From NCBI GenBank assembly GCA_965220965.1, contig CBDCRI010000001.1:160001-224000 (forward strand): DNA of 64,000 nucleotides, given 5' to 3'. The position numbers and the translations under genes were made by a program. This DNA comes from Candidatus Marinacidobacterium sp. (GTDB taxonomy: Bacteria > Acidobacteriota > Vicinamibacteria > Marinacidobacterales > Marinacidobacteraceae). Below are positions 4,888 to 32,243 of the stretch, piece by piece (position 1 is the stretch's first letter; the number at the start of each line of letters is the position of its first letter). The notes beneath the pieces were generated by a model, which saw only the letters and a program-made list of their open reading frames with translations, had not been told where the DNA came from and made no database searches.

Positions 4888-6696
4888 CTACCCAAGAGGG
4901 CCTCCACAATTCGGGTAAGAGGGACACCCCGACCCGCCACCGCACGTAACAGCTATCTTGGGGTAACCCGAGCAGCTTTCACTATTGCCACAAGGAGACT
5001 GACAGGTGGTCAACGTGTGGTTGTAGAAACAAGTAGTCCCTTGTGGAGTATCCCAAACTTCCGAGAAAGTCTGATAGTCAAGTTCTGGGTCGCAAGAGGG
5101 GGGAGGTTTCGGTTCTGGGCACTTTCCGCAGTTGAGAGTCTTGGAGCAGTTCCGTGAGAGGCCCACGTTGGCGCAGGAGGCCTGGGCGCACTGCCCGGTT
5201 CCGGGCGTGCAAGTCCGGTGCTCCTTTCCGTACTTAAGCGTGGGGCCACAGTCATCCGGTGCGCAGGCGGCCGAGCAGCCCCCCCAGTCGCTGATCGTTC
5301 GCTTCGTGCCGCAGTTCTTGGTGCAGGACGCTTGGAGCGGGTACCCCGCGCAGGTCTGGTGCGCGTAGCTGCCGGTCCCGGGCGTGCAGGTCCGGTACTT
5401 CTTTCCCGACTGGGCCCCGCACTTCCCGGTGCACGAGGCTTGGCAAGCCCCGTATTCGGAGACGTGGCGCGGCGCGCACCCGCGCGACTCGGTTTCCGTC
5501 CCCGCCGGGGGGGTGCAGCCCGCGCCGCAGGTGGCGCCGCTGCAGGTCCGACTGCAGGTCCTTGACTGCTGGCCGTTCGAGCAGCCCGACCAAGCCCCGC
5601 AGGACCATCCGGACAAAGTTCCCTTTTGCCCGGGATTCGTCCCCGTGGCCAGCCGGCTGGTCCCCGGGCAGCTGGCAGGTGACGCGGAGCGCGTTTGCGT
5701 GAACTTCGTGCCCTTACAGTAGGAGCTCGTTGACGGAGCCCAGCTCCCGTAGCTGCACGTGCAGTCCGTCCTGGTGCCAGGCGTGGAGGTGGCCGGCTTC
5801 TGACCCGTCGGCGTGCAGCCCGACGGGCTCTCCCACACGGAGCGGCTCGCCGACTGGGGCGGGCAGATGGTCGACGGGTCGGGGCTCCACGCCGAGGTCT
5901 GCCAGCGGCAGGGCGGGGTGGAGCAGTTCTGCTTCGTGCCGGGCATTGTCGTCGCCGGCTTCGCCGCGCTCGGCGTGCAGCCGGCGGCGCTCGAGCGCAC
6001 CGTGCGGGTGGCGGAGTACTGCGGGCAGAGCGTCGCCGGGTTCGGGTTCCAGGCGCCCACCTGCCAGTCGCACGCGCAGGGGCAGCTCACGCTGCACGCC
6101 CGCGACAGAACCTGCCCGTCGCAGGTCTCCGAGGCGTGGCTGCCGGTCCCCGGCGTGCAGGTCCGCGTCTGCTGGCCCTGCGCCGTGCCGCAGTTGTCCT
6201 GCGCCCCGCAGGAGGCGGAGCACGCCCCCCAGGGGCCGAGCGAGCGCGGCGCGTTCGGGGCCGCGGTGACCGGCGTGATCGAGACCAGGCCGCGGGCCTC
6301 CCAGCGCTTCACCTCCTCCCACCGGGGCGGCCAGTCGATGCGGCCCTGGTTGGCGGGCGGGCTCTCCACGTCGCTGCTCTCGCCGCCGAACAGCAGCGGC
6401 CGGCCGGCGTCGCCCCAGGCCGGCAGCGCCTTTATCTCCAGCTCGGTGCCGATGGGGTACGGCGGCATCGGGTAGTCGGCGGTGGCGCGCAGGTGCAGGT
6501 CGCCGCCGGCCCCGAAGCGCATGATCTTCGGGTCGGTGAGGCAGTGCGAGGAGCCCGCCGGACCCTCCTGCGCGACAATGAAGCCCCCCAGGCTGCCCGG
6601 CGGGCACTCGTTCTCCTGGGCCAGCGCCAAGGAGGCCGACAGCAAGGCGGCCACCGCCGCGAGCAGGCCAAGCTTCCGGTGCGAACTCCTGTGCAT
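4888..6696 (-). CDS. secreted Cys/Trp-rich protein with thrombospondin type-1-like repeats
   Basis: GGAGG RBS then signal peptide MHRSSHRKLGLLAAVAALLSASLALAQ; repeats WGACSASCG...GQQTRTC, WSGCSNGQQSRTC, SDWGGCSAAC and WxPxPxTxCP units. Confidence 0.8.
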   Translation of the reverse strand: MHRSSHRKLGLLAAVAALLSASLALAQENECPPGSLGGFIVAQEGPAGSSHCLTDPKIMRFGAGGDLHLRATADYPMPPYPIGTELEIKALPAWGDAGRPLLFGGESSDVESPPANQGRIDWPPRWEEVKRWEARGLVSITPVTAAPNAPRSLGPWGACSASCGAQDNCGTAQGQQTRTCTPGTGSHASETCDGQVLSRACSVSCPCACDWQVGAWNPNPATLCPQYSATRTVRSSAAGCTPSAAKPATTMPGTKQNCSTPPCRWQTSAWSPDPSTICPPQSASRSVWESPSGCTPTGQKPATSTPGTRTDCTCSYGSWAPSTSSYCKGTKFTQTRSASPASCPGTSRLATGTNPGQKGTLSGWSCGAWSGCSNGQQSRTCSRTCSGATCGAGCTPPAGTETESRGCAPRHVSEYGACQASCTGKCGAQSGKKYRTCTPGTGSYAHQTCAGYPLQASCTKNCGTKRTISDWGGCSAACAPDDCGPTLKYGKEHRTCTPGTGQCAQASCANVGLSRNCSKTLNCGKCPEPKPPPSCDPELDYQTFSEVWDTPQGTTCFYNHTLTTCQSPCGNSESCSGYPKIAVTCGGGSGCPSYPNCGGPLG

Positions 6697-7055: not shown

Positions 7056-7068
7056 ATGGTATAATGCA
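7056..7068 (+). promoter_or_regulatory. extended -10 promoter ATGGTATAATGCA
   Basis: TG-n-TATAAT upstream of the RNA ligase; the same 13-mer (R at position 11) recurs at 40985-40997(-), 58920-58932 and 63506-63518. Confidence 0.7.
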
Positions 7069-7103
7069 TGTGTCACGCATTGGAGCAACGGAGTCCCCCC
7101 CCC

Positions 7104-8159
7104 ATGTCCGCATTCGAGGCCCGCATCCACGCCCTCGCCGTGGAGCCCCACCCCAACGCCGACCGGCTCGAGCTGGCCGCGGTCGGCGGCTATCGCTGCG
7201 TGGTCGGCAAGGGCCAGTTCGCCGACGGCGACCTGGCGGCCTACATCCCGGAGGGCGCGCTGTGCCCGGACTGGCTCATCGCGGACCTCGGCCTGGAGGG
7301 CAAGCTGGCCGGCCCGGAGGCCAACCGCGTCAAGGCATTGGTCCTGCGCGGGGCGCTCTCCGAAGGGCTGGTGTACCCGGTGCGGGAGGGACGCCTGCGC
7401 GGCCGTGCGGTGGCGGTCGGCGACGACGTGACCGAGCTGCTCGAGATCGAGAAGTACGTGCCGCCCATCCCGGTGCACATGTCGGGCCAAGTCAGGGCCG
7501 TCCACGGGGCCACGCTCAAGTACGACATTGAGCCCTACAAGAGGCACCTGGGCGTCCTGCGGGAGGGGGAGCCGGTGTGCATCACCGAAAAGCTGCACGG
7601 CACCTGGTGCTGCCTGGGCGTCCATCCCGCGCACGGCCCCATCGTCACCTCCAAGGGGCTGTCCGGCCGCGGGCTGGCCTTCGACCTTGACGAAGCGGCG
7701 GGCAACGCCGACAACCTGTACGTCAAGGCATGGCGTCGGCTGGAGGGGAGCATCCGAGCGCTCGCCGACGAGTTCGGCGCCCCCGTCCACGTTCTGGGCG
7801 AGGTCTTCGGCAAGGGCGTTCAGGACCTGCACTACGGGCGCCAGGCGCCCGACTTCGCGGCGTTCGACGTCCACGTGGGCGAGCCGGGGGAGGGGCGCTA
7901 CCTCGACGCCGCGGAGTTCCGCCCAGCGGTCGCCCGCCACGGCCTGGAGCCCGTCCCCGTCCTCCACGAAGGGCCTTTCTCGCATGACGCGCTCATGGCG
8001 TGCGTGGACGGGGGCACCAGCTTCGGCGCCGGGCACATCCGCGAGGGGGCGGTGGTCCGCCCGGCGGCGGAGCGGCGGGATCCGGCGATCGGGCGCGTGC
8101 TGCTCAAGTGCACGTCCGGCGGCTACCTGACCCGCCGCGGGGGCACCGAGCACGCCTAG
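7104..8159 (+). CDS. ATP-dependent RNA ligase, Rnl2/DRB0094-like family
   Basis: N-terminal HPNADRLELA domain; ligase motifs I TEKLHGT, III LGEVFG, IIIa FAAFDV, IV REGAVVRP and V LLKCTS. Confidence 0.9.
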   Translation: MSAFEARIHALAVEPHPNADRLELAAVGGYRCVVGKGQFADGDLAAYIPEGALCPDWLIADLGLEGKLAGPEANRVKALVLRGALSEGLVYPVREGRLRGRAVAVGDDVTELLEIEKYVPPIPVHMSGQVRAVHGATLKYDIEPYKRHLGVLREGEPVCITEKLHGTWCCLGVHPAHGPIVTSKGLSGRGLAFDLDEAAGNADNLYVKAWRRLEGSIRALADEFGAPVHVLGEVFGKGVQDLHYGRQAPDFAAFDVHVGEPGEGRYLDAAEFRPAVARHGLEPVPVLHEGPFSHDALMACVDGGTSFGAGHIREGAVVRPAAERRDPAIGRVLLKCTSGGYLTRRGGTEHA

Positions 8160-8256
8160 GTACCCTGCCCCCGAGCGGTCCCAACCAACCCGGGCGCGAG
8201 TTCCTATATTCGGCCCGAAGCCCTCCGCCCGGGAGGGCGCGCTTGCAGGAGGGGCC

Positions 8257-9285
8257 ATGGAAGACAGCCATGTCGAATCGAGCGAGGTCAAGGACGCGCG
8301 CGTCAGGCACGCGAAGGCGGCGGCCGCCGCGCACGAGGCGCTGCTCGATGCCATTCACGCCGCGTTCGGCGACAGTCCCCCGCATGGCCGGCTATGCGTG
8401 CATTGGGACGGGTTCGGCGACCATGGCTGCGTTGACGCCGTCGACTGGGGGTTCCCGGACCCCGCCGAGGAGGCCGACGCTGAGTCCCTCACTTGCATCA
8501 TCGACGAAAAGGCGGAAAGGCCGCCGTCTTCGGTGACGGAGGCGGCCATGAATTTCGTCCACAGGTTGATCGACTTTGATCGGTGGCTTCGGGACATGGA
8601 GGTCGGCGCAGGCGGCGACATCGCCTTCATCCTCGACTGCGTCTCGGGCCGCGTCTCCGTGAGTGCCCGGCGCTGGGTGGTCAAGCTTAGAGCGCTCGAC
8701 CCCCGCGCCGAGCGTAGCTGGTTTCTGCCAGTTAAAAAGCTCGAAGGAGAGGGTTTCGAGGAGCCTCGGCTCGGGCTCGACAGTGGCGGCGCGCAAGCCA
8801 TCGCCCGCCTCGAGCACGGGGTGTCAAAATCCCTGCGCGCAGCCATCGGGGGCCGCTGGGCGCACCGCCGGTGGGACAGGCTTGCGTGGGATGGCCTCGG
8901 GGTGACCTACGTTTTCGGCAGGATGGGCGACAAACTCTTCATCCACAGTTTGCACTTCCATCCACCGGCAGTCGGGATCAGAGGGCGGGGGCCGGCGTTG
9001 GAGGACTTGGTGATGGACGTAATCGATGAGTGGGGCATCGACCGGGTCTGCACTGACCCGGCCGCACGGTCAGGCGATGACCGGCCCCGCAGCGAGAACT
9101 CCTTTGCGACCATCGGCGTTCGGCTTCCGATCAACGCGAAGGCCCGCTCCGCGGCCGTCACCATCACGCGCGACATCAAGAAAGTGGTGTATCAGCTGGA
9201 GCAGTTCTACACCCGCGACCCGCTGCCGTCCTCGTCCTACTACCGCCCGAGGGTGGCTAGCGCCCCGGCGGGCCCTGGCCTCTGA
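8257..9285 (+). CDS. acidic GxGDxG-family protein (DUF6878-like), paralogue 1
   Basis: LCVHWDGFGDHG motif; AGGAGG RBS; clear similarity to neighbours. Confidence 0.75.
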   Translation: MEDSHVESSEVKDARVRHAKAAAAAHEALLDAIHAAFGDSPPHGRLCVHWDGFGDHGCVDAVDWGFPDPAEEADAESLTCIIDEKAERPPSSVTEAAMNFVHRLIDFDRWLRDMEVGAGGDIAFILDCVSGRVSVSARRWVVKLRALDPRAERSWFLPVKKLEGEGFEEPRLGLDSGGAQAIARLEHGVSKSLRAAIGGRWAHRRWDRLAWDGLGVTYVFGRMGDKLFIHSLHFHPPAVGIRGRGPALEDLVMDVIDEWGIDRVCTDPAARSGDDRPRSENSFATIGVRLPINAKARSAAVTITRDIKKVVYQLEQFYTRDPLPSSSYYRPRVASAPAGPGL

Positions 9286-9554
9286 AGCCAGCTGCGGCAA
9301 CCGCGGGGGGAGCGTCCCGCCGGATCGGTGTGGACGGCTGGGAACCCGGCATTTCCGAGCTGCCCGACGCAGGGCGGCGGCCTTGACAAGGCGTTTTCTC
9401 CGGCGCCAGATCGACGCGGACGGCCAGCCAGGGGTTCGGCTTCGCGGCGCTGGAGCCTCAAGCGGGAGCGCCGGGGAAGGGCGCCTCCCTCGACGGCGCC
9501 GACTTCCGCGCAGGGGCCGCCCCACGGCGCAGTGGCACGATCCGGCGGCCACCT

Positions 9555-9668
9555 GACACGCCGCGGTGCGCCGGGCCGGCCTGACGCACGCGGGGCCAAC
9601 CCACGGCGGCTTCCTATAATCGACGCGATGTCCCCCCGAAGGGGCGGGCGCCTTTGCAGGAGGGGATT
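9555..9668 (+). repeat. repeated promoter/leader unit (copy at about 10787-10910, diverged copy at about 8180-8256)
   Basis: Shared CGCGGGGCCAACCCACGGCGGCTTYCTATAATCGACGC...CCCCGAAGGGG...GCGCCTTTGCAGGAGGGGA. Confidence 0.85.
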
Positions 9669-10697
9669 GTGGACGACGGCCAGGCCGCAGCGAGAGAAAC
9701 GAGGAGCGCGCGCGCGAAGGAGGCGGACGACGCGCACAAGGCGCTGCTGGATGCCATTGGCGCCACCTACCGGGGCGGCGCCCCGCATGAACGGCTTTGC
9801 GTGCATTGGGACGGGTTCGGCGACCAAGGCTGGGTTGACGCCGTCGCCTGGGGGGTCCCGGACCCCGCCGAGGAGGCCGGCGCAGCGCCGCTCACGTGCA
9901 TCATCGACGAGAAGGCGGAGAGGCCGCCGCCTTCGGTGACGGAGGCGGCCACGAATTTCGCCTACCTGGCGATGTCCGCGCACCCGGCGGAGCTTAAGGG
10001 CTTGTGCGACAACGACGGCGGCGACGTCTCCCTCGTCCTCGACTGCGCCTCGGGCCGCGCCACCGTGAATTCGCGCCGCCGGGAGAGGCAGCTAAAGGCG
10101 CTCGACCCCAACGCCGCCCGCGCCGCCAGCCTGCCCCTCAACGCGCTCGACGGCACGCCCGGCGAGGCGCGCGCGCTGGGGCTTTTCAGCGGCGGCGCGC
10201 AAGCGGTCGCGGACCTCGGGCGCGGGCTGTCACGCACCCTGCGCTCCCTCGTCCCAGCCTCAAAGCAGGCCCTCGCGGAGGATGTGGCCCGGGAGGGCAT
10301 CGCGGTCAGGTACCTGTTCAGCGCGGAGAGCGGCAGAGGCGTCATCGAGGAGATCATGACCCCCTCCCCGCTGAGGGGTGACGAGAATGACGGGGACTTC
10401 CAGTGGTGGAGTTCCCACTGGTGCGACCTGGTGGACGAACTGATGGATAAGGGGGGCATCGACGACGTCTGCACCGGCCTCGCCGACCGGGCCGGCCACG
10501 AATGGACCCGAAAGGAAGGCTGCCTTTTGTCCATCGAGATGCGCTTTCCGATCGACCCGGAAGCCGACGGCGCGGCCGTCGCCATCACGCGCGAGGTCGT
10601 GAAGTGGGAGAGCTCGTTCGAGGACATCGCCACCTTCGACATGCCGCCGCGCGACCGACCGCGGGCGGCCAGCTCCCCGGACGGCCCTGGCCTGTGA
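9669..10697 (+). CDS. acidic GxGDxG-family protein (DUF6878-like), paralogue 2
   Basis: GTG start after AGGAGGGG; HWDGFGDQG...CDNDGGDVSLVLDCASG and a second related domain. Confidence 0.75.
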   Translation: MDDGQAAARETRSARAKEADDAHKALLDAIGATYRGGAPHERLCVHWDGFGDQGWVDAVAWGVPDPAEEAGAAPLTCIIDEKAERPPPSVTEAATNFAYLAMSAHPAELKGLCDNDGGDVSLVLDCASGRATVNSRRRERQLKALDPNAARAASLPLNALDGTPGEARALGLFSGGAQAVADLGRGLSRTLRSLVPASKQALAEDVAREGIAVRYLFSAESGRGVIEEIMTPSPLRGDENDGDFQWWSSHWCDLVDELMDKGGIDDVCTGLADRAGHEWTRKEGCLLSIEMRFPIDPEADGAAVAITREVVKWESSFEDIATFDMPPRDRPRAASSPDGPGL

Positions 10698-10910
10698 CAT
10701 CCGCCGCTGCAACCGCAGGCGGCTGGGCGGGGCGGACGGGCCGGCGACTGGCCGCGTGCCGCCCAAGCGCACGCGCGGCGGTCTCCTGACCCGCCGCGGG
10801 GGCGCCGCGACCGCCTGACGCCCGCGACGCCGCGCGGGGCCAACCCACGGCGGCTTTCTATAATCGACGCAACGCCCCCGAAGGGGAGGGCGCCTTTGCA
10901 GGAGGGGAAC

Positions 10911-11951
10911 GTGGACGACAGCCAGACCGCAGCAAGCGCGGCCAGCGACCGGCGCGCCGAGGAGGCGGCGGAGGCCGCGCGCGACGCGCTGCTCGATGCC
11001 ATTCGCGCCGCTTTCGGCAACCACCCCCCGCATGAGCGGCTTTGCGTCCATTGGGACGGGTTCGGCGACAATGGGGCGGTTGACCTAGCCGCCTGGGGCC
11101 GCGCGGATCCCGCCGAGGATGCCGACCCCAAGACGCTCACCTGCCACCTTTGCGAAGAGCCCGAGCCCATGCCGCCCTCGGTGGAGGAGCGGGCGATGGA
11201 CTTCGCCCTCCTTGCGATCGATGCGCACGAGGAGCTCCACCACTTCGGGGACGGCGACGGCGGCGTCATCGACGTCATCCTCGACTGCCGCTCAGGCCGG
11301 GCCACCGTGGATGCCCAGCGCAGGGAGGCCCGGCTCCAAGTGCCGGACACCAGCGCCATCAGGAACGCAAGGCTGCCCCTGGACGCCCCGGAGGCGCCGA
11401 ACGGCGAGTGGGCCAAGCTCGGGCTCAGCGACCGCGGCGCAAAAGCCATCAGGAGCTTTGCGCGCGGGGTGTCCAGCGACCTGCGCGCCGGCGTCGAGGC
11501 CGTCAGGGCGGGGCTCTGGGAGGAGCTTGCCGAAGAGCGCATCGTGGTGCGGTACTGCTTCAACGGTGAGGGCGACGAAGGCATGCTGGAGGACGTCGAG
11601 GCCCTCCCCACGCCAAGGTTCTGGGCGGATGATGGGCTCCGTCAGCAGTGGCATGCCGAGTGGGCGGGCATGGTGTTCCGGCGCATCGGGAAGATGGGCA
11701 TCGACGACGTCTGCACCGGCCTCGCCGACCGGGCCGGCTGGGACTGGAGCAGCAACCACGGCGGAGCCCTGTGGATCGAGCTGCGGCTGCCGCTGGACGC
11801 GAGCGCCGAGGAGGCGGCCGTCGAGATCGCCCGGGTGGTCCAGATCAGGACGTACCCCTTGGTGGACGACCTGACCTTTGACATGTCGCCCGGCCCCCCG
11901 CCGCAACCCCAGGAGGAGCGCCATGCCGGACCGGCTTCCGGACCGCAGTGA
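10911..11951 (+). CDS. acidic GxGDxG-family protein (DUF6878-like), paralogue 3
   Basis: GTG start; HWDGFGDNG and a second motif FNGEGDEG. Confidence 0.75.
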   Translation: MDDSQTAASAASDRRAEEAAEAARDALLDAIRAAFGNHPPHERLCVHWDGFGDNGAVDLAAWGRADPAEDADPKTLTCHLCEEPEPMPPSVEERAMDFALLAIDAHEELHHFGDGDGGVIDVILDCRSGRATVDAQRREARLQVPDTSAIRNARLPLDAPEAPNGEWAKLGLSDRGAKAIRSFARGVSSDLRAGVEAVRAGLWEELAEERIVVRYCFNGEGDEGMLEDVEALPTPRFWADDGLRQQWHAEWAGMVFRRIGKMGIDDVCTGLADRAGWDWSSNHGGALWIELRLPLDASAEEAAVEIARVVQIRTYPLVDDLTFDMSPGPPPQPQEERHAGPASGPQ

Positions 11952-12468
11952 CAGCGAGCTTGCCGAGCTGAATGACGTCCGGCGGCGGCTTTGCGCCGCA
12001 GTGCTCGATGAGGCCGCTCCGCTCGGCCTCGACCACGCCGAGGCGCGCCTGGTCCTGGAATGGTCGGGCCACGGCGACTCGGGCTGCCTCGAGAAGGCCT
12101 ACTTCCAGCGACGCTCCGGCGGCGATGGGCCGGCGGGGCCGTGGGCGGACCTGGGCAGCATCGACCTCTCCGAGACCACGGCGTGCATGGCCGACGATTT
12201 CCTGACCCGCCTTGTCTGCCACTTCCCCGAAACGGAAGGTCTTGAGATGCACGACGGCGGCGGCCTCAGGGCCGCCCTCGACCTGCGCGACGGGACCTGC
12301 GAGGCCACCGCGGGATTCGGCTTGTGCGAGTGGGACGTTGCGGCCATCGACGCAATCGAGTTCGACGGGCGCTTGCCCCCCGATCCCGAGATCGCCGCGG
12401 CCTTCCGGCGGGCGGAGCGCGCCAAGCCGGGGCGAGAAGGCCCGCGCCCGCCCGGCGTCGCGACCTGA
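11923..12468 (+). CDS. acidic GxGDxG-family protein, single-domain paralogue 4
   Basis: AGGAGGAG RBS; LEWSGHGDSG; C-terminal EFDGRLPPDPEIAAAF shared with paralogues 5 and 6. Confidence 0.72.
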   Translation: MPDRLPDRSDSELAELNDVRRRLCAAVLDEAAPLGLDHAEARLVLEWSGHGDSGCLEKAYFQRRSGGDGPAGPWADLGSIDLSETTACMADDFLTRLVCHFPETEGLEMHDGGGLRAALDLRDGTCEATAGFGLCEWDVAAIDAIEFDGRLPPDPEIAAAFRRAERAKPGREGPRPPGVAT

Positions 12469-12480
12469 CCGGAGACGAGC

Positions 12481-13491
12481 ATGCCGATGACGAAGGAGGA
12501 GCGCTGGAGCAGGAACCGCGACGAGATGGTCGCCGCCCGGCGGCGGCTTTGCGCCGCCGTGCTCGAGGAGGCCGCCCAGCACGACCTCGGCCGGGCGCGC
12601 CTGCTCCTTGAGTGGTCCGGGCTCGGCGACGAGGGCACCTTGGACTTCATGGAGTTCAGGCCCTGGCCGTCCGGGACGCCGACCGGCCCCGACCTCCCGC
12701 GCATCCGCCTCTCCCCCTCGACCCGCAGCCTCGCCAGCGACTTCGTGGACCGCCTGGTCAACCACTTCCCCGAAACCGAGGGGCTGGACAACGAGTGCGG
12801 CGGCCACTTCCGGTGCGCGCTCGACGTGCGCGACGGCGCCTGCGAGTCGACCGCGGAAGCCAACCAGGAGGCGGAGGACGTGCAGGTTCAGCGCGTCGAC
12901 TCCGACCGCGTGGCCCATCCCTGGTCCCTGCTGCCGACGCTCACCGGACCCATGGCGGTGCCGATGGTGCAGGCCCAGGCCATCGTCGGCTTCTGCGCCG
13001 GCCTCGGGGGCCAGCTGGCCGAGGGGGGCGCCCTGGCCGAGGCCACGTCGGGCCTCGAGGAGGTCACGATACTGGTGTTGTACTCCGGGGGCGGCGACGA
13101 AGGCGAGCTTGAGTCGGTGTCGGTCGAGGACGCCAAGCGCATCCCGGGCGTTGGGGCGGCATCCCTGATGGACGCCCTCGACGCCGTCGACTCGGCCATC
13201 CGCAAGCTCCTCACCCCCGAGCTCGAGGAGGCGCTCTGCAAGGCCGCCCGGGATTGCGGCCATGACGTCGTCCATGACCTCGGTGGGTACGTGCACCTCC
13301 AACTGACCCTGCCCGGCCCCCGGGCCGCCAATCCCGGCTACAGCCTGAGCCGGGTCGTCTACAACTGGGAGGAGTCCTCCCGGGAGGTTGAGTTCAACGG
13401 CCGACTGCCGGCCGACCCCGAGATCGCCGCGCACTTCGCGCGCGGGCGCTCGCCCGACGCGGACCCCGGCGCCCCCGGCCCGGCCCCCTGA
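12481..13491 (+). CDS. acidic GxGDxG-family protein, paralogue 5
   Basis: LEWSGLGDEG and YSGGGDEG motifs; EFNGRLPADPEIAAHF tail. Confidence 0.75.
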   Translation: MPMTKEERWSRNRDEMVAARRRLCAAVLEEAAQHDLGRARLLLEWSGLGDEGTLDFMEFRPWPSGTPTGPDLPRIRLSPSTRSLASDFVDRLVNHFPETEGLDNECGGHFRCALDVRDGACESTAEANQEAEDVQVQRVDSDRVAHPWSLLPTLTGPMAVPMVQAQAIVGFCAGLGGQLAEGGALAEATSGLEEVTILVLYSGGGDEGELESVSVEDAKRIPGVGAASLMDALDAVDSAIRKLLTPELEEALCKAARDCGHDVVHDLGGYVHLQLTLPGPRAANPGYSLSRVVYNWEESSREVEFNGRLPADPEIAAHFARGRSPDADPGAPGPAP

Positions 13492-13560
13492 ATGCAAGCG
13501 AGGCCGGAGCCGCAAGCCGCTTGCCGCTCCGGCGCAGAGCAGGGCCGACAGGAGACAGCC

Positions 13561-14619
13561 ATGCAAAACGCGCTTCGGCATCCCAAGGAAACGAATGCGA
13601 GCGACCCGCTCTTCATGCGGCGCGAACTGTGCGCCGCGGCGCTCGAGGACGCGGCCTTCCTCGGCCTCGACCTCGGCCGGACGCGACTGAACCTCGAGTG
13701 GACGGGCCGTGGAGGCTGCAGCCACATGGAGGACGTCTACTTGCTCGTCCGGCCCGCCGGCGGCGTGGCGGGAGAGGCCCCTCACGCCAGCCTTCTCCGC
13801 GACTCCCTCTCCGAGCGGACCCGAAGCCTTGCCAGCGGCTTCCTAGGCGCCTTGGTGGGACGGTTTCCGGAAACCCGGCACCTGGACCAAGGCGACGGCG
13901 GGGAATTCGAGGCCTGGCTTGACCTGCGCTCCGGGTCGGGCCATGCGTCCGCATGGTCCAGGCAGAGCCAGCTTCGGCAAGTCGAGATGCTGGCCACGGC
14001 GCCGTCGGCCAGCCCAATCAGCTTGGGCCAGGCGCTTTCCGGGCCGATGGGCGTCGCGCCAAGGCACGCGAGGGCGGTGGCCCGGTTCTGCGCGCGTCTC
14101 GGGCGGCAACTCGGCGACGGGGGCGAGCTGGCCATGGCGGTCCCCGAACTTGCGGAGATCGAGATATTGGCCGAGTTCGAGGCCTGGGGCGAGACGGGCG
14201 AACTGGAGTCCGTGGAGGTGGATCCCGCCGGAAAGTCCTTCGCGGCTGCCGACCCGCGGGCCGTGCGCGAAGCCATGCCTGCGGTTAACGCCGCCATTCA
14301 CGAGCTGCTCACCTGCGAGGAGGAGGAGGCGTTGTGCCAAGTGGCCCTGAGCACGCAATGCGGCGCGGTCAGCGAGGACGGGGAGTTCGGGCGCGTTGCC
14401 GTCCGAATGGTGCTGCCCACCGCCCACGCGCCCGAACCATGCTACCGCGTGAGCCGGCAGGTCCTGCACGTGGAGGACGTCCACACCCCGATCCCCTTCG
14501 ACGGCCGGCTGCCGGCCGACCCGGAGATCGCCGCGCGCTTCGCGCGGCCGGAGCGCGCCCACGCGGCGGGCGGACGCTTGGACGGCCCTGGCCGCAGCAG
14601 GCGCGGCCTTGCACCCTGA
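13561..14619 (+). CDS. acidic GxGDxG-family protein, paralogue 6 (motifs degenerate)
   Basis: AGGAG RBS; RRELCAAALE...LEWTGRGGCS, FEAWGETGELE; FDGRLPADPEIAARF tail. Confidence 0.72.
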   Translation: MQNALRHPKETNASDPLFMRRELCAAALEDAAFLGLDLGRTRLNLEWTGRGGCSHMEDVYLLVRPAGGVAGEAPHASLLRDSLSERTRSLASGFLGALVGRFPETRHLDQGDGGEFEAWLDLRSGSGHASAWSRQSQLRQVEMLATAPSASPISLGQALSGPMGVAPRHARAVARFCARLGRQLGDGGELAMAVPELAEIEILAEFEAWGETGELESVEVDPAGKSFAAADPRAVREAMPAVNAAIHELLTCEEEEALCQVALSTQCGAVSEDGEFGRVAVRMVLPTAHAPEPCYRVSRQVLHVEDVHTPIPFDGRLPADPEIAARFARPERAHAAGGRLDGPGRSRRGLAP

Positions 14620-29067: not shown

Positions 29068-29144
29068 GGTAAAATGGCCTCGACATGCGGCGGCCCCGCC
29101 TTCAGCGGGGCCAAAGCGACGTTGCGACCCAACCGGAGGCGGCC

Positions 29145-29834
29145 ATGAGCAGCGACGAAAAGGTGGTGGTGGAGATTCGGGCCGCCGAGGGCGGCGCCGA
29201 CAGCCTGCTCTTCGCGGAGGAGCTGGCGCTGGCCTACGAGCGGCTCGCGGCGAGGAAGCGCTGAAAGGCGCGCCGGGCGCCCTCGGGCGGCAGGGGGCTG
29301 GCCTTGGCGGTCGAGGGGCCCGGGGCCGGCGGCCTGCGCCGGGAGGCGGGCGGGCACCGCGTCCAGCGGGTGCCCGCCAACGAGCGGCGCGGGCGCGTGC
29401 ACACCAGCACGGTCACCGTCGCGGTGCTTTCCGAGGGCGGCCCGGACGCGAACCTTCCCGACATCCCCAAGCGCGACCTGCGCATCGACTGGTTCTCCGG
29501 CCAGGGCAAGGGCGGGCAGCACCGCAACCGCAAGCGGAACTGCTGCCGCGTCACGCACCTGCCGTCCGGCATGCGGGAGGTCCGCCAGGGCCGCGAGCGC
29601 GAGCGCAACCTCGCGCAGGCGGTCGAGGCGCTGCGGCGGCGGCTCGCAACGGGCCGCAGGGACGCGGCGCTCGGGCGGCAGGCGGCGAGCCGCCGCGGGC
29701 AGGTCGGCAGCGGCATGCGCGGCGACAAGGCGTTCACGGTGCGCTTCCAGGACAACGTCGCGGTGCGCCACGCCACCGGCGCCAGGATGCGCGCCGACCT
29801 GTACATGGCCGGCCACATGGACCGGCTGTGGTGA
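29145..29834 (+). CDS. short RF1-like peptide chain release factor with in-frame TGA at codon 40
   Basis: GGAGG-ATG MSSDEKVVVEIRAAEGGADSLLFAEELALAYERLAARKR*KA... continues in frame to EAGGHRVQRVPANERRGRVHTS and GKGGQHRN; TGA at 29262-29264. Confidence 0.85.
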
Positions 29835-30191
29835 CGGCCGGCGGCGGCTTCGCGGGCCGCGGGCGCCCGGTGCCGCCGCCCGCGCTTCGCAAGGCCGCCG
29901 GAATGCCCGCAAAACGCCCCGGATACGCACATCATGCACGACAACTGCAATTGTCGCGCATCATTAAGAGGGCGGAAACCGACCCGTCCCGCCGCCGAGG
30001 AACGTCGCCGAAAAGCGGCTTCCGGGGCCTTCGCCCAAGTGCCGAACGCGGCCTTCGAACGTGCGGCATGCCGTTCAGTCCAAATGTCGGAAACGGCCGC
30101 AACTGCCTGGAAAGGCAAGGATTCGAGCCGCCATCCGGCGCCGGTCCTGCCGGGACCGGCTCGCAGGGGCGGCTCCTTGGCAAAGCTGGCC

Positions 30192-30623
30192 ATGGCCATT
30201 GAGTCCACGCTGCAGGGCGGGCTGCTGCTGGCCGCGGGCGCGCTGTTCGGCGATTGCCCCGACAGTCCCTTCGCGGTCGTTGTCTCGCAGGGCGCGGGCG
30301 AGCCGGCCAGCGTCGGCAGCTATGCCGTTCGGCTGTACGACGCCCGGGATCCGGAGTGGCCGCTCGATGCGTTCCTCGGCGGCTTGGTGCGCCCCCGCGA
30401 CGGCGCGGTCGAGTCGCTGGAGTTCGGCGACGTGGACGACGACGGAGAAGCCGAGGCGGTGGTGGCCGTGCGCTCCATGGGTTCAGGGAGGCATCTAGAC
30501 GCGGAGGCCTTCAAGGCCTGCCGCGGATCGCTCAGGCACGTCAGGTCCACCAGCGGGCTCCCGCCCGGTGCGGACCCCGTCAAGGCCCTCAAATCCTCCC
30601 CAGCTGGCATGGCGCGCCCATGA
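30192..30623 (+). CDS. pliI: PliI-family inhibitor of invertebrate-type lysozyme
   Basis: EPASVGSYAVRLY...RDG...RSMGSG motifs; hydrophobic N-terminus. Confidence 0.78.
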   Translation: MAIESTLQGGLLLAAGALFGDCPDSPFAVVVSQGAGEPASVGSYAVRLYDARDPEWPLDAFLGGLVRPRDGAVESLEFGDVDDDGEAEAVVAVRSMGSGRHLDAEAFKACRGSLRHVRSTSGLPPGADPVKALKSSPAGMARP

Positions 30624-30659: not shown

Positions 30660-30768
30660 GGTTGTTGTAAACTGCTTGCACCGCGCCGCCCGCGCGTCCT
30701 TGCCAAGAGGTTGAATAGACACGAAAGAAACGACAAATCGCCGCTGTTTCATTGGCTTAAGGCTTAGG
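30660..30768 (+). promoter_or_regulatory. CRISPR leader of array 2
   Basis: Lower GC; degenerate IHF-like TTTCATTGGCTTA at 30747-30759; the two leader-proximal repeats are identical. Confidence 0.6.
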
Positions 30769-31590
30769 GGCGGCCCCGCTTGCGCGGGGATGAACCCTTA
30801 TACTCAGGCAACTTTGATTAGTGCGTGATGGCGGCCCCGCTTGCGCGGGGATGAACCCGATGAATATGCGCCGATTACGCCGAACAGGGCGGCTGCCCCG
30901 CCAGCGCGGGGATGGACCTTCGCATTGACAATCGGGATGCGTATCCGGTAGGACTGCCCCGCCTGAGCGGGGATGGCCCCCCGTAAAGCAGAGCTTACGG
31001 ACACCATGCCATGACTGCCCCGCCAGCGCGGGGATGGGCCCAGGCAGCTACTATAGTGCGGCAGCATGAACAGGGCGGCCCCGCCTGCGCGGGGATGGAC
31101 CCATTGTCGCATTGATCGAAGGGAGTCGTGCGGCGACGGCCCCGCCAGCGCGGGGATGGACCCTCCATGCCTAGTCTCCTTGCGATGCATCAAAGGGCGG
31201 CTCCGCCAGCGCGGGGATTGACCCACATGGTTTGAGCTGCTCGAGTGGCGCGAGCCGGCGGCCCCGCCTGCGCGGGGATGGACCCTTTTTAGTGTGGTCG
31301 TGTGCAACCGATTCTGAGGCTGCCCCGCCTGCGCGGGGATGGCCCCCCGAAAATCAGGGCTTGCGGAAACCATGCCATGACTGCCCCGCCTGAGCGGGGA
31401 TGGACCCGTTTTGGAAGCACCCACGGGACATCTGAGCATGGCGGCCCCGCCGGCGCGGGGATGCACCCTTGATGGCGGCGTCATCGAGCTCCGAGGCAAT
31501 AACCGCCCCGCCAGCGCGGGGATGGAGCGACTGACGCTTAGTTGGGCTCAATTGCCTTTGCGGCTGCCCCGCCACTGCGGGGACGGGCCC
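30769..31590 (+). CRISPR. type I-E-like CRISPR array 2: 14 repeats (29 nt), 13 spacers (32 nt)
   Basis: G(G/A)C(G/T)GCCCCGCNNNNGCGGGGATGGACCC-like repeats at an exact 61-nt period from 30769 to 31562. Confidence 0.96.
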
Positions 31591-32243
31591 TCCGAAGCCG
31601 GCGGGGCGCTGCCGGTGACCTGATTGGCCCGTCGGTTCCGCGGCCCGTTGGCCCGCCCTGCCGCTCCGACAACGCCCTCGCTGCAGCCGTCTGGGCGCCC
31701 GGGGACGGCGAGTCCCGCTTAGGCGCCGCCATCGGCCCTTCGTCGGCGGCAAGCCCCTCGGGGTCCACCGCGGCGACGAACTCGCTGAGGCGGTCCGGCA
31801 ATTCGGCCATGACGACGCACGCCGACTCGATCGCCGGCCGGGCCAAACCCGCGCGGAACGGAACGTCGAGGCCGCGCACGGCCCAATCGCGCAGGGACAG
31901 GCATCGGCGGGCGTGGGCGGCCAGATCGGGCGGCAGGATCGCCGGGCGGCCCCGGCTGGCCTCGGCCGCCCGGTCAATGAGCGGCGCGCCCCTCGCCTCC
32001 CCTCCGGGCATTGACTCCCTGAGCGCGCGCAGCGCCTTCAGCAACGCCGCCTCCAAGGAGGCGTGGCCGCAACTGCATGGAGTAAAGAATGACCTTCTGG
32101 CCGTCCCTGCCCGCCGCCCCTGGCTGGGCATGGCTACCGGCCTCGAAGTGCCGAACGGCGTCGCCGAAGTGGCGCACGGCGCTTTGCGCGTCCGCCATCA
32201 TGGTCGCCCAAGGCGCGCCGAGCCGCCGGTCCGCCCCATCCAT
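31538..32243 (-). pseudogene. HepT/HEPN-like gene, frameshifted
   Basis: WATMMADAQSAVRHF...YSMQ, one extra T near 32072, then CGHASLEAALL...RPAILP...EFVAAVDP; the reading frame runs into the last CRISPR repeat. Confidence 0.5.

Follow-up and report, generated by a model that had tools for sequence, protein, structure and literature searches.

We describe here a gene for a short release factor resembling RF1, found in a 64-kb window of DNA from Candidatus Marinacidobacterium sp. (by the window we mean the whole stretch of 64,000 nucleotides that was analysed), which is interrupted early in its coding sequence by an in-frame TGA standing at a codon where RF1 has a conserved tryptophan. The same interruption recurs in diverged homologues from other genera, with the reading frame preserved and with coding constraint on both of its sides. 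The reading best supported by these comparisons, and the one that we regard as probable, is that the full-length factor is made by readthrough of the UGA.

The interrupted gene and its product

The gene occupies positions 29145..29834 of the forward strand, where an ATG at 29145, with a Shine-Dalgarno-like GGAGG (29135..29139, read from the sequence) 5 nt upstream of it, opens a frame with a read-through product of 229 codons. The first segment (29145..29261), comprising the start codon and 38 further codons, contains the first beta-strand and helix of release factor domain 2 (EIRAAEGG...AYERLAARKR), and its 39 sense codons translate as MSSDEKVVVEIRAAEGGADSLLFAEELALAYERLAARKR. Codon 40, which falls at the Trp column of RF1, is the in-frame UGA (29262..29264, in the context CGC UGA A, the A being position 29265). 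The second segment (29265..29831) then runs in the unchanged frame for 189 codons, encoding the rest of domain 2, domain 3 and domain 4 (QVGSGMRGDK...), as far as the TGG TGA at 29829-29834, whose terminal stop codon (29832..29834) stands in the context TGA C. In the translation, the PAN tripeptide of domain 2 lies at 29373..29381 and the GGQ of domain 3 (residues 123-125) at 29511..29519, and besides the TGA of codon 40 no further internal stop or frameshift was found between 29145 and 29834. The guanine-cytosine content at third codon positions (GC3) of the second segment is 0.98, matching the best-coding genes of a window whose overall GC is 73.6%, and nearly all of the 39 codons of the first segment likewise end in G or C, giving it a high GC3 like that of the remaining gene. 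A preliminary description of this DNA had given the same layout (ribosome-binding site, ATG, in-frame TGA and a frame continuing through the decoding loop and GGQ with no other lesion), and translation confirms it.

The read-through protein matches the Pfam families PCRF (PF03462) over residues 4-92 (78.1 bits) and RF-1 (PF00472) over residues 106-201 (55.4 bits). Among the NCBIfam models prfA fits best, with only positions 103-333 of its 347 covered, and the scores fall well short of those set for a full-length prfA (164.7 bits against a cut-off of 400 for NF001859, and 163.5 against 423.25 for TIGR00019); the prfB model (84.5 bits) and the prfH model (TIGR03072, 32.3 bits) are both far under their cut-offs. 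Domain 1, which in RF1 comprises about 105 residues, is absent, just 9 residues standing ahead of the EIR strand. By its sequence, then, the gene product is an RF1-like class-I release factor without domain 1. PADLOC returned no match for it as a component of a defence system.

The recognition loop is RF1-like, of the form Q..P-x-T/N..H-T. The decoding tripeptide of the window protein is PAN, where RF1 has PxT; across the family it is PPT in 76 of 95 sequences and one of the PxN forms in 13. The Gln and the His-Thr of the RF1 loop, which we take to have roles in codon recognition, are retained in the window protein (QRVPANERRGRVHTST). Because this loop is RF1-like, the factor should read UAA and UAG, and should not recognise the UGA inside its own gene.

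An AlphaFold2 model computed from the family alignment (pLDDT 94.1, pTM 0.83) superposes on ribosome-bound RF1 (e.g., 8akn_W, 9mtr and 5j4d) with query TM-scores of 0.91-0.93 and root-mean-square deviations of 2.0-2.5 Å, as compared to lower TM-scores of 0.79-0.87 against RF2 complexes, and the read-through protein is thereby predicted to fold as RF1 domains 2-4. In the model a strand (residues 5-15) and a helix (residues 18-37) lie within the domain-2 core, and codon 40 starts the strand that follows. The GG(D/E) segment of the N-terminal piece is presumably the counterpart of the helix tip with which RF1 reads the first base of the stop codon. Since residues 5-37 are integral to domain 2 and would include this helix tip, a product lacking the first 39 residues would be structurally and functionally incomplete, and the model suggests that the N-terminal piece is needed for a complete factor.

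Recurrence of the interruption

A scan of one genome per species gave 80 loci, 78 of which lie outside the short family. In 76 of these canonical RF1 loci the frame is open for 60 codons or more ahead of the match, the other two loci being cut by contig ends. Over all 78 the aligned Trp column holds W in 77 and Y in one; a stop stands there in 0 of the 78. Both of the short-family members among the 80 scanned loci (L001 and L024) are interrupted. Taken together, an in-frame TGA is present in all six short-family loci with DNA (the window, L001, L024, L081, L082 and L083). The internal stops number seven, all of them TGA and none TAA or TAG; they are followed by A in five cases and by C in two, they all fall within codons 36-57, and the frame is preserved across the stop in 6/6 loci.

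In four of the six loci (the window, L001, L081 and L082) the TGA stands at the same Trp codon, across a protein identity of about 50% and a locus GC of 48-74%. The context CGC TGA AAG at Trp codon 40 of the window is matched by CGC TGA ACT at exactly the same Trp codon in L001, from a Rhodospirillales metagenome-assembled genome (47.8% GC, 53% identity), by CGT TGA AAG in L081, on plasmid pRlX5 of Rhizobium leguminosarum, and by GCT TGA ACA in L082, on plasmid pBSY19_1 of Bosea sp. RAC05 (5857-6558). The TGA of L083, on plasmid 2 of Variovorax sp. WDL1 (5827-6531), lies further downstream, at codon 57 (GGC TGA CTC). The gene at L024, from a Bacteroidetes metagenome-assembled genome (40% GC; JAJONO010000002.1, 5992-6675), belongs to what we call the GGHRWQ clade of short RF-like proteins; it has two in-frame stops, CGC TGA AGT at codon 46 and ATC TGA CTT at codon 54, and a TAA terminator. 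According to record titles and taxonomy lines, the hosts of the family loci include Alpha- and Betaproteobacteria and Bacteroidetes. A query with domain 4 for further plasmid copies found only the Rhizobium and Bosea records, and a tblastn search of a phage collection gave 55 records of at most 44.7% identity, not inspected as DNA, none of which resembled a close family member.

The preliminary description had suggested searching homologues for a stop at this codon with purifying selection on both sides of it, and distant homologues do have both. It had also named the outcome that would speak against its proposal, namely homologues that all have TGG and a private TGG>TGA mutation here; the TGA in L001, L081 and L082 contradicts this decisively.

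The protein databases give a similar picture. A query with the read-through protein collected 94 family proteins, of which 33 are uninterrupted and 61 are without the N-terminus. The Trp column of the 33 holds W in 28, F in two, L in two and V in one, and never Cys, so that the alignment of the stop with the RF1 Trp, as first described, is borne out both here and by the canonical loci. The 61 shorter proteins begin at reference positions 42-85, never ahead of the Trp column; a few of those on small contigs may have been cut short by the contig edge, and nearly all open with a start-codon residue past the column. A profile search of 1.84 billion cluster representatives (50% clustering) had 78 family-like sequences among its best 150, 18 with the N-terminus and 60 without.

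The missing N-terminal pieces were sought with an alignment of seven such pieces, which gave 4,680 matches at E <= 1 among 8,000 scored, and the best 120 were examined. These are mini open reading frames (mini-ORFs), several of which are named 'protein subunit release factor A' by their sources. As many as 109 of the best 120, with lengths of 35-65 residues, stop 29 residues past the Glu of EIR..GG, directly ahead of the Trp column, 10 terminate at the first L024 stop, and one, on a 526-base contig, continues through GW. Since L024 has two in-frame TGAs and ten mini-ORF clusters share the first of its ends, the habit of in-frame TGA reaches other columns and another phylum. An apparent avoidance of Gly before the stop (0/5 interrupted versus 27/28) was rejected, as Gly precedes the stop in 89 of the 109 mini-ORFs.

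Two observations on individual proteins may be added. Many short members of the GGHRWQ clade (P0149, P0154, P0170, P0202 and others) bear 9-37 unaligned residues before the conserved GG-V-F segment; the interruption in such members probably lies at other upstream positions, or alternatively a frameshift might be involved. Further, the short protein P0096 (179 amino acids) is identical to residues 41-219 of P0038 (219 amino acids, with W at the column), which would represent either a TGG/TGA polymorphism between near-identical strains or an artefact of contig edges or gene calling.

Selection, phylogeny and decay

Throughout the 95 aligned family sequences, the 61 interrupted ones included, GGQ does not vary, and neither do nine other columns. 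Over their 35-37 upstream codons, the four genes whose Trp codon is TGA share 20-25 identical residues, and 9-16 of these residues are encoded by different codons. Upstream of the stop the proportion of nonsynonymous differences (pN) is 0.27-0.35 against a proportion of synonymous differences (pS) of 0.59-0.85, and downstream of it pN is 0.37-0.44 against a pS of 0.63-0.92. Judged by these substitution patterns, the interrupted genes are not pseudogenes, and purifying selection acts on both sides of the stop. A FastTree phylogeny of the shared C-terminal region (101 rows, none left out, rooted on two RF1 sequences, with many weak branches) contains a clade of 19 rows in which there is no uninterrupted member and all motifs are retained.

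What decay looks like in this family can be seen at the Rhizobium leguminosarum locus (L081), where two truncated copies of the C-terminal half (7876-8232 and 8605-8922) sit 1.2-2.2 kb downstream of the intact-looking gene. These copies have lost GGQ, and one has a further stop; real decay therefore differs from the interrupted genes.

Readthrough and alternative explanations

A stop that is conserved at one codon in diverged homologues, with coding constraint on both sides and a single frame throughout, is the pattern by which programmed readthrough can be recognised from comparison, and it is present here. A conserved TGA on an ancestral Trp codon, in one frame, under two-sided constraint and followed by A or C only, is moreover as readthrough by near-cognate tRNA-Trp predicts. 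The earlier claim that the full-length factor needs UGA readthrough is thus well supported by the recurrence of the TGA at the same codon and by the selection on its two sides.

We infer the following scheme. Most ribosomes would stop at the UGA of codon 40 by means of RF2, freeing a peptide of 39 residues, and a minority would decode the UGA by near-cognate tRNA-Trp (anticodon CCA), restoring the ancestral Trp and yielding a 229-residue factor with decoding loop and GGQ. In E. coli UGA-A is decoded by tRNA-Trp at a low rate, an example being the stop that ends the Q-beta coat gene. As RF2 and tRNA-Trp would compete for one codon, output of the factor would be low and inversely tied to RF2 activity, rising as UGA termination weakens, for instance through shortage or damage of RF2 or through opal suppression. 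A C following UGA is described as making a weak stop (PMC12421855), and UGA as being readable by Trp-tRNA (PMC3521657). Domain 1 is reported to be dispensable for codon specificity and peptide release and required for RF3-mediated recycling (PMC1586002); on that basis the domain-1-less factor may recycle poorly, and poor recycling would explain the low level at which it is held.

The preliminary description had gone further, proposing an autoregulated sensor of termination capacity. Autoregulation has to be given up, as the factor looks to be of RF1 type (UAA/UAG), and cross-regulation by RF2 would take its place. The sensor could follow from the competition between RF2 and tRNA-Trp, and as a hypothesis it fits the data in the same way as does a constant attenuator. 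A more specific proposal, which we put forward as speculation and think unlikely, is that gating by UGA makes the short RF1 a dedicated trans-sensor of opal decoding, silent while RF2 works, and serving as an emergency terminator or an abortive-infection effector. It would come on once termination at UGA collapses or is suppressed, for instance through a phage that introduces an opal-suppressor tRNA or recodes TGA, or through a toxin or stress that puts RF2 out of action, and as an abortive-infection effector the domain-1-less factor, not being recyclable by RF3, would lock ribosomes at UAA and UAG. Of the six DNA-verified copies, four are carried by plasmids or by an island with many toxin and restriction-modification genes.

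Several points weigh against readthrough as the explanation. Interrupted and intact states are interspersed on the tree, with at least 17 changes by parsimony, of which well-supported branches force 3-5, and an on/off switch would give the same interspersed pattern. The 109 mini-ORF clusters fix the end point only, being protein-level end points, and the identity of the stop as TGA comes from the DNA of seven sites in six genes. The A after the UGA is partly set by the residue that follows (the W of uninterrupted relatives mostly has T, I or K after it), so that the base in the +4 position is only weak evidence that leakiness was selected. There is also no obvious physiological reason for gating a factor of RF1 type by an RF2-specific codon.

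Nor is there a shared RNA structure among the loci folded. A stem-loop predicted at 29267-29331 of the forward strand, starting 3 nt past the UGA (-49.1 kcal/mol, z = -2.76, with 2 of 200 shuffles as good), contains the small hairpin (29278-29289) of the preliminary description. The same folding of 70 nt from the UGA gave z = -1.05, -1.96, -0.55 and -0.77 in L001, L081, L082 and L083, respectively, and a conserved RNA stimulator was rejected, as the structure is significant in the window alone among the five loci. The stem-loop thus appears to be specific to the window and no part of the proposed mechanism; of the context described earlier, the UGA-A stands, and the hairpin, now part of a larger predicted structure, is not conserved in the four other loci.

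The interspersion on the tree could also be read as the trace of a recurrent and reversible null allele, that is, a TGG>TGA transition which silences a costly or toxic gene and toggles it on and off with no meaningful readthrough. The identity of the short P0096 to residues 41-219 of the W-bearing P0038 and the presence of decayed copies at the Rhizobium locus would accord with this. We nevertheless hold it to be improbable, for the off state would be the majority (109/120 mini-ORFs) and would persist across about 50% protein divergence with an invariant GGQ and with pN below pS, the clade of 19 rows without an intact member keeps every motif, and TAG, TAA and scattered frameshifts would be expected instead of seven TGAs out of seven, all in codons 36-57. 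Alternatively, the gene might be split, the 39-residue peptide and a re-initiated C-terminal protein acting separately or assembling noncovalently, or the C-terminal piece alone being functional. There is an in-frame TTG at 29304 of the window preceded by AGGGGG, and gene callers and PGAP (the NCBI annotation pipeline) annotate two ORFs, for instance products of 56 and 172 amino acids in Variovorax. However, the first start past the stop is not conserved, ranging over reference positions 42-85 and sometimes lying beyond the decoding tripeptide, both pieces stand in one frame at 6/6 loci, which re-initiation would not need, and the predicted domain 2 has the N-terminal strand and helix built into its core; we judge a split gene quite improbable.

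Dedicated recoding, whether by selenocysteine with a selenocysteine insertion sequence (SECIS), by an opal-suppressor tRNA or by a variant tRNA-Trp with a 4-bp anticodon stem, and whether host- or element-borne, would also account for a conserved UGA flanked by coding sequence, as in selenoprotein genes, and for the stable hairpin just downstream of it in the window; UGA is reported to be read in bacteria by tRNA-Trp(CCA) variants whose anticodon stem has 4 bp (PMC13092985). We find it very improbable, because uninterrupted relatives carry Trp and never Cys at the column, no Rfam family (SECIS included) was found at gathering thresholds in the window and no tRNA gene by ARAGORN, the downstream structure is not common to the loci, and the span of hosts over Alpha- and Betaproteobacteria and Bacteroidetes makes shared special machinery unlikely. 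A selenoprotein in particular was rejected, since one would look for a UGA aligned to Cys and a SECIS hairpin and found instead were W at the column and no Rfam match in the window. Genetic code 4, in which TGA is Trp, was likewise rejected: TGA terminates 9 of the 12 Pfam-supported genes of the window and also the RF-like gene. In the six RF-like genes every other Trp is encoded by TGG, the five large neighbours that were examined at each of two loci contain 23 TGG (L001) and 46 TGG (L024) with no in-frame TGA, and the ORFs of L024 are identical under tables 11 and 4. Editing of A to I, for which TadA uses a motif of the UACG type, and transcriptional slippage were rejected on the nucleotides themselves, the site having neither a UACG-type motif nor a homopolymer run. 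A sequencing error or a strain-private mutation in this genome, in favor of which there is only the prior that in-frame stops are usually lesions, has practically no likelihood left: it is refuted by three independent records from other genera, each with a TGA at this very codon, and by the shared end point in 109 protein clusters.

Genomic setting

The RF-like gene is situated near the right-hand end of an island of lower GC (approximately 2-32 kb of the window, 65-74% GC as compared to 76-79% in the core), which encodes an RNA ligase, two C5 methylases, an AbiEii-like toxin domain, an integrase, a Fic protein and a HipA-like kinase; past the island lie core genes for an exonuclease, RecJ and ribonucleotide reductase. 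The preliminary description had assigned the gene to a mobile element, and the low-GC island with its integrase, Fic, HipA, AbiEii and methylase genes is in keeping with that. The Rhizobium, Bosea and Variovorax homologues are on large plasmids. The homologue at L001, however, lies amid housekeeping-type genes (peptidase, GreA and CarB, named by eye from translations). A tblastn comparison of 12 window neighbours with L001, L081, L082 and L083 gave no match, and a Pfam search of the neighbours of L081-L083 revealed nothing in common. As no neighbour is common to the homologous loci and the context at L001 is of housekeeping type, a mobile-element setting is not a feature of the family; from these comparisons the RF-like gene seems to behave as a stand-alone unit. 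HipA is encoded near the gene both in the window and in Bosea, and since the arrangements differ this was treated as coincidence and rejected as a family feature.

The terminal TGA (29832-29834) is in frame with the next ORF (29934-30623), with no intervening stop. The C-terminal part of that ORF matches PliI, a periplasmic lysozyme inhibitor, and the open frame that joins the two is probably an accident of high GC. A clustered regularly interspaced short palindromic repeats (CRISPR) array at 30767-31592, starting 0.9 kb downstream of the RF-like gene, has 14 repeats of about 29 nt with a period of 61 nt and a consensus near CGGCCCCGCCAGCGCGGGGATGGACCC, and we take the repeat to resemble those of type I-E; none of the 38 window ORFs scanned matched a Cas family. 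At 7068-14619, behind the RNA ligase gene (7068-8159, PF09414 plus OB domain), come six ORFs in one orientation, 196-375 amino acids long, and then a C5 methylase gene. The six ORFs have no match in Pfam, NCBIfam or PADLOC, and the region may be an uncharacterised island module.

At the Bosea locus (L082) the RF-like gene is unannotated, a hypothetical protein (WP_236840360.1) having been called across it on the opposite strand, and it lies between a cluster of Cas6e, RAMP and helicase genes and a HipA and helix-turn-helix pair. At the Variovorax locus (L083) RefSeq gives the two halves as a hypothetical protein of 56 amino acids and a 'peptide chain release factor-like protein', and the next gene encodes a SecB-like chaperone.

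Comparison with known systems

The textbook case of a release factor gene controlled through the pathway that it serves is prfB, with its frameshift; in E. coli the internal UGA of prfB is codon 26. The prfB gene thus resembles the genes described here, where the stop falls at codons 36-57, in encoding a class-I release factor with an early in-frame UGA, and in that the yield goes up when RF2 termination is slow. In prfB, too, the stop is followed by a base of weak context (PMC12421855). It differs in that prfB is decoded by a +1 frameshift, whereas here frame 0 continues in 6/6 loci and readthrough would be needed. Indeed, the hallmarks of a prfB-type frameshift are missing from these loci: the codons before the UGA are CGC, CGC, CGT, GCT, GGC, CGC and ATC, with no CUU, and AGGAAG is found near the UGA only in the window, so that an internal Shine-Dalgarno sequence is not conserved. 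Further, prfB is autoregulated, whereas an RF1-type product would here be under cross-regulation by RF2.

Low-level near-cognate reading of UGA-A by tRNA-Trp, with insertion of Trp, is familiar from the coat/A1 gene of Q-beta. There readthrough adds a C-terminal extension, whereas here it would be required for any functional protein and would restore a conserved residue. PrfH (RFH) is similar to the present family in having no domain 1 and keeping GGQ, but it has its own decoding loop as compared to the RF1-like loop here, it pairs with RtcB, and its model (TIGR03072) gives the window protein only the 32.3 bits mentioned above against a cut-off of 166.65. Of the 38 window ORFs searched against Pfam, none matched an RtcB-family domain, the sole ligase being the PF09414 protein at 7068-8159, some 21 kb away. 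To our knowledge, PrfH has not been reported with an in-frame stop.

A class-I release factor gene that requires UGA readthrough, with Trp proposed as the inserted residue, has been described in Mimivirus and Megavirus (R726/mg280; PMC3521657). R726/mg280 is an eRF1/aRF1 homologue of a eukaryotic virus and involves UGA-C readthrough plus a frameshift, whereas the present family consists of bacterial RF1 homologues with a single putative recoding event on an ancestral Trp codon and is widespread across bacteria. Plant eRF1 is similar in that readthrough couples expression of the termination factor to termination efficiency (PMC5397192), and differs in being eukaryotic and dependent on nonsense-mediated decay, with a stop that is the factor's own cognate signal. 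The RF1 of Jade phages, part of a 'code-change module', is an additional RF1-type factor outside the host core genome and tied to the use of UGA as Trp (10.1101/2021.08.26.457843). It is encoded in the standard code with no internal TGA and lies beside a suppressor tRNA and TrpRS (10.1101/2021.08.26.457843), none of which is present in the window.

Before the genes were sequenced it had been supposed that RF2 might be controlled by readthrough of an early in-frame UGA; according to the 2016 review by Atkins et al. this is not found in bacterial RF2 genes, and an RF1 counterpart is 'also unknown' (PMC5009743). A full-text literature search, with subscription journals and supplements outside its reach, yielded no account of this family, nor of any bacterial RF1-like gene that carries an in-frame UGA. 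The family would define an uncharacterised third kind of stop-codon-reading factor, without the domain that contacts RF3, and its interruption explains a systematic mis-annotation, in which one gene appears as a 'release factor A' fragment of 35-45 residues and a truncated 'PCRF domain protein'. If the proposed readthrough is true, its UGA would offer a natural, widespread and evolutionarily tuned site for studies of near-cognate decoding in bacteria, and this would be the first bacterial release factor gene behind an early stop that needs readthrough, with the twist, as compared to prfB, that a gene of RF1 type is gated by a codon specific to RF2.

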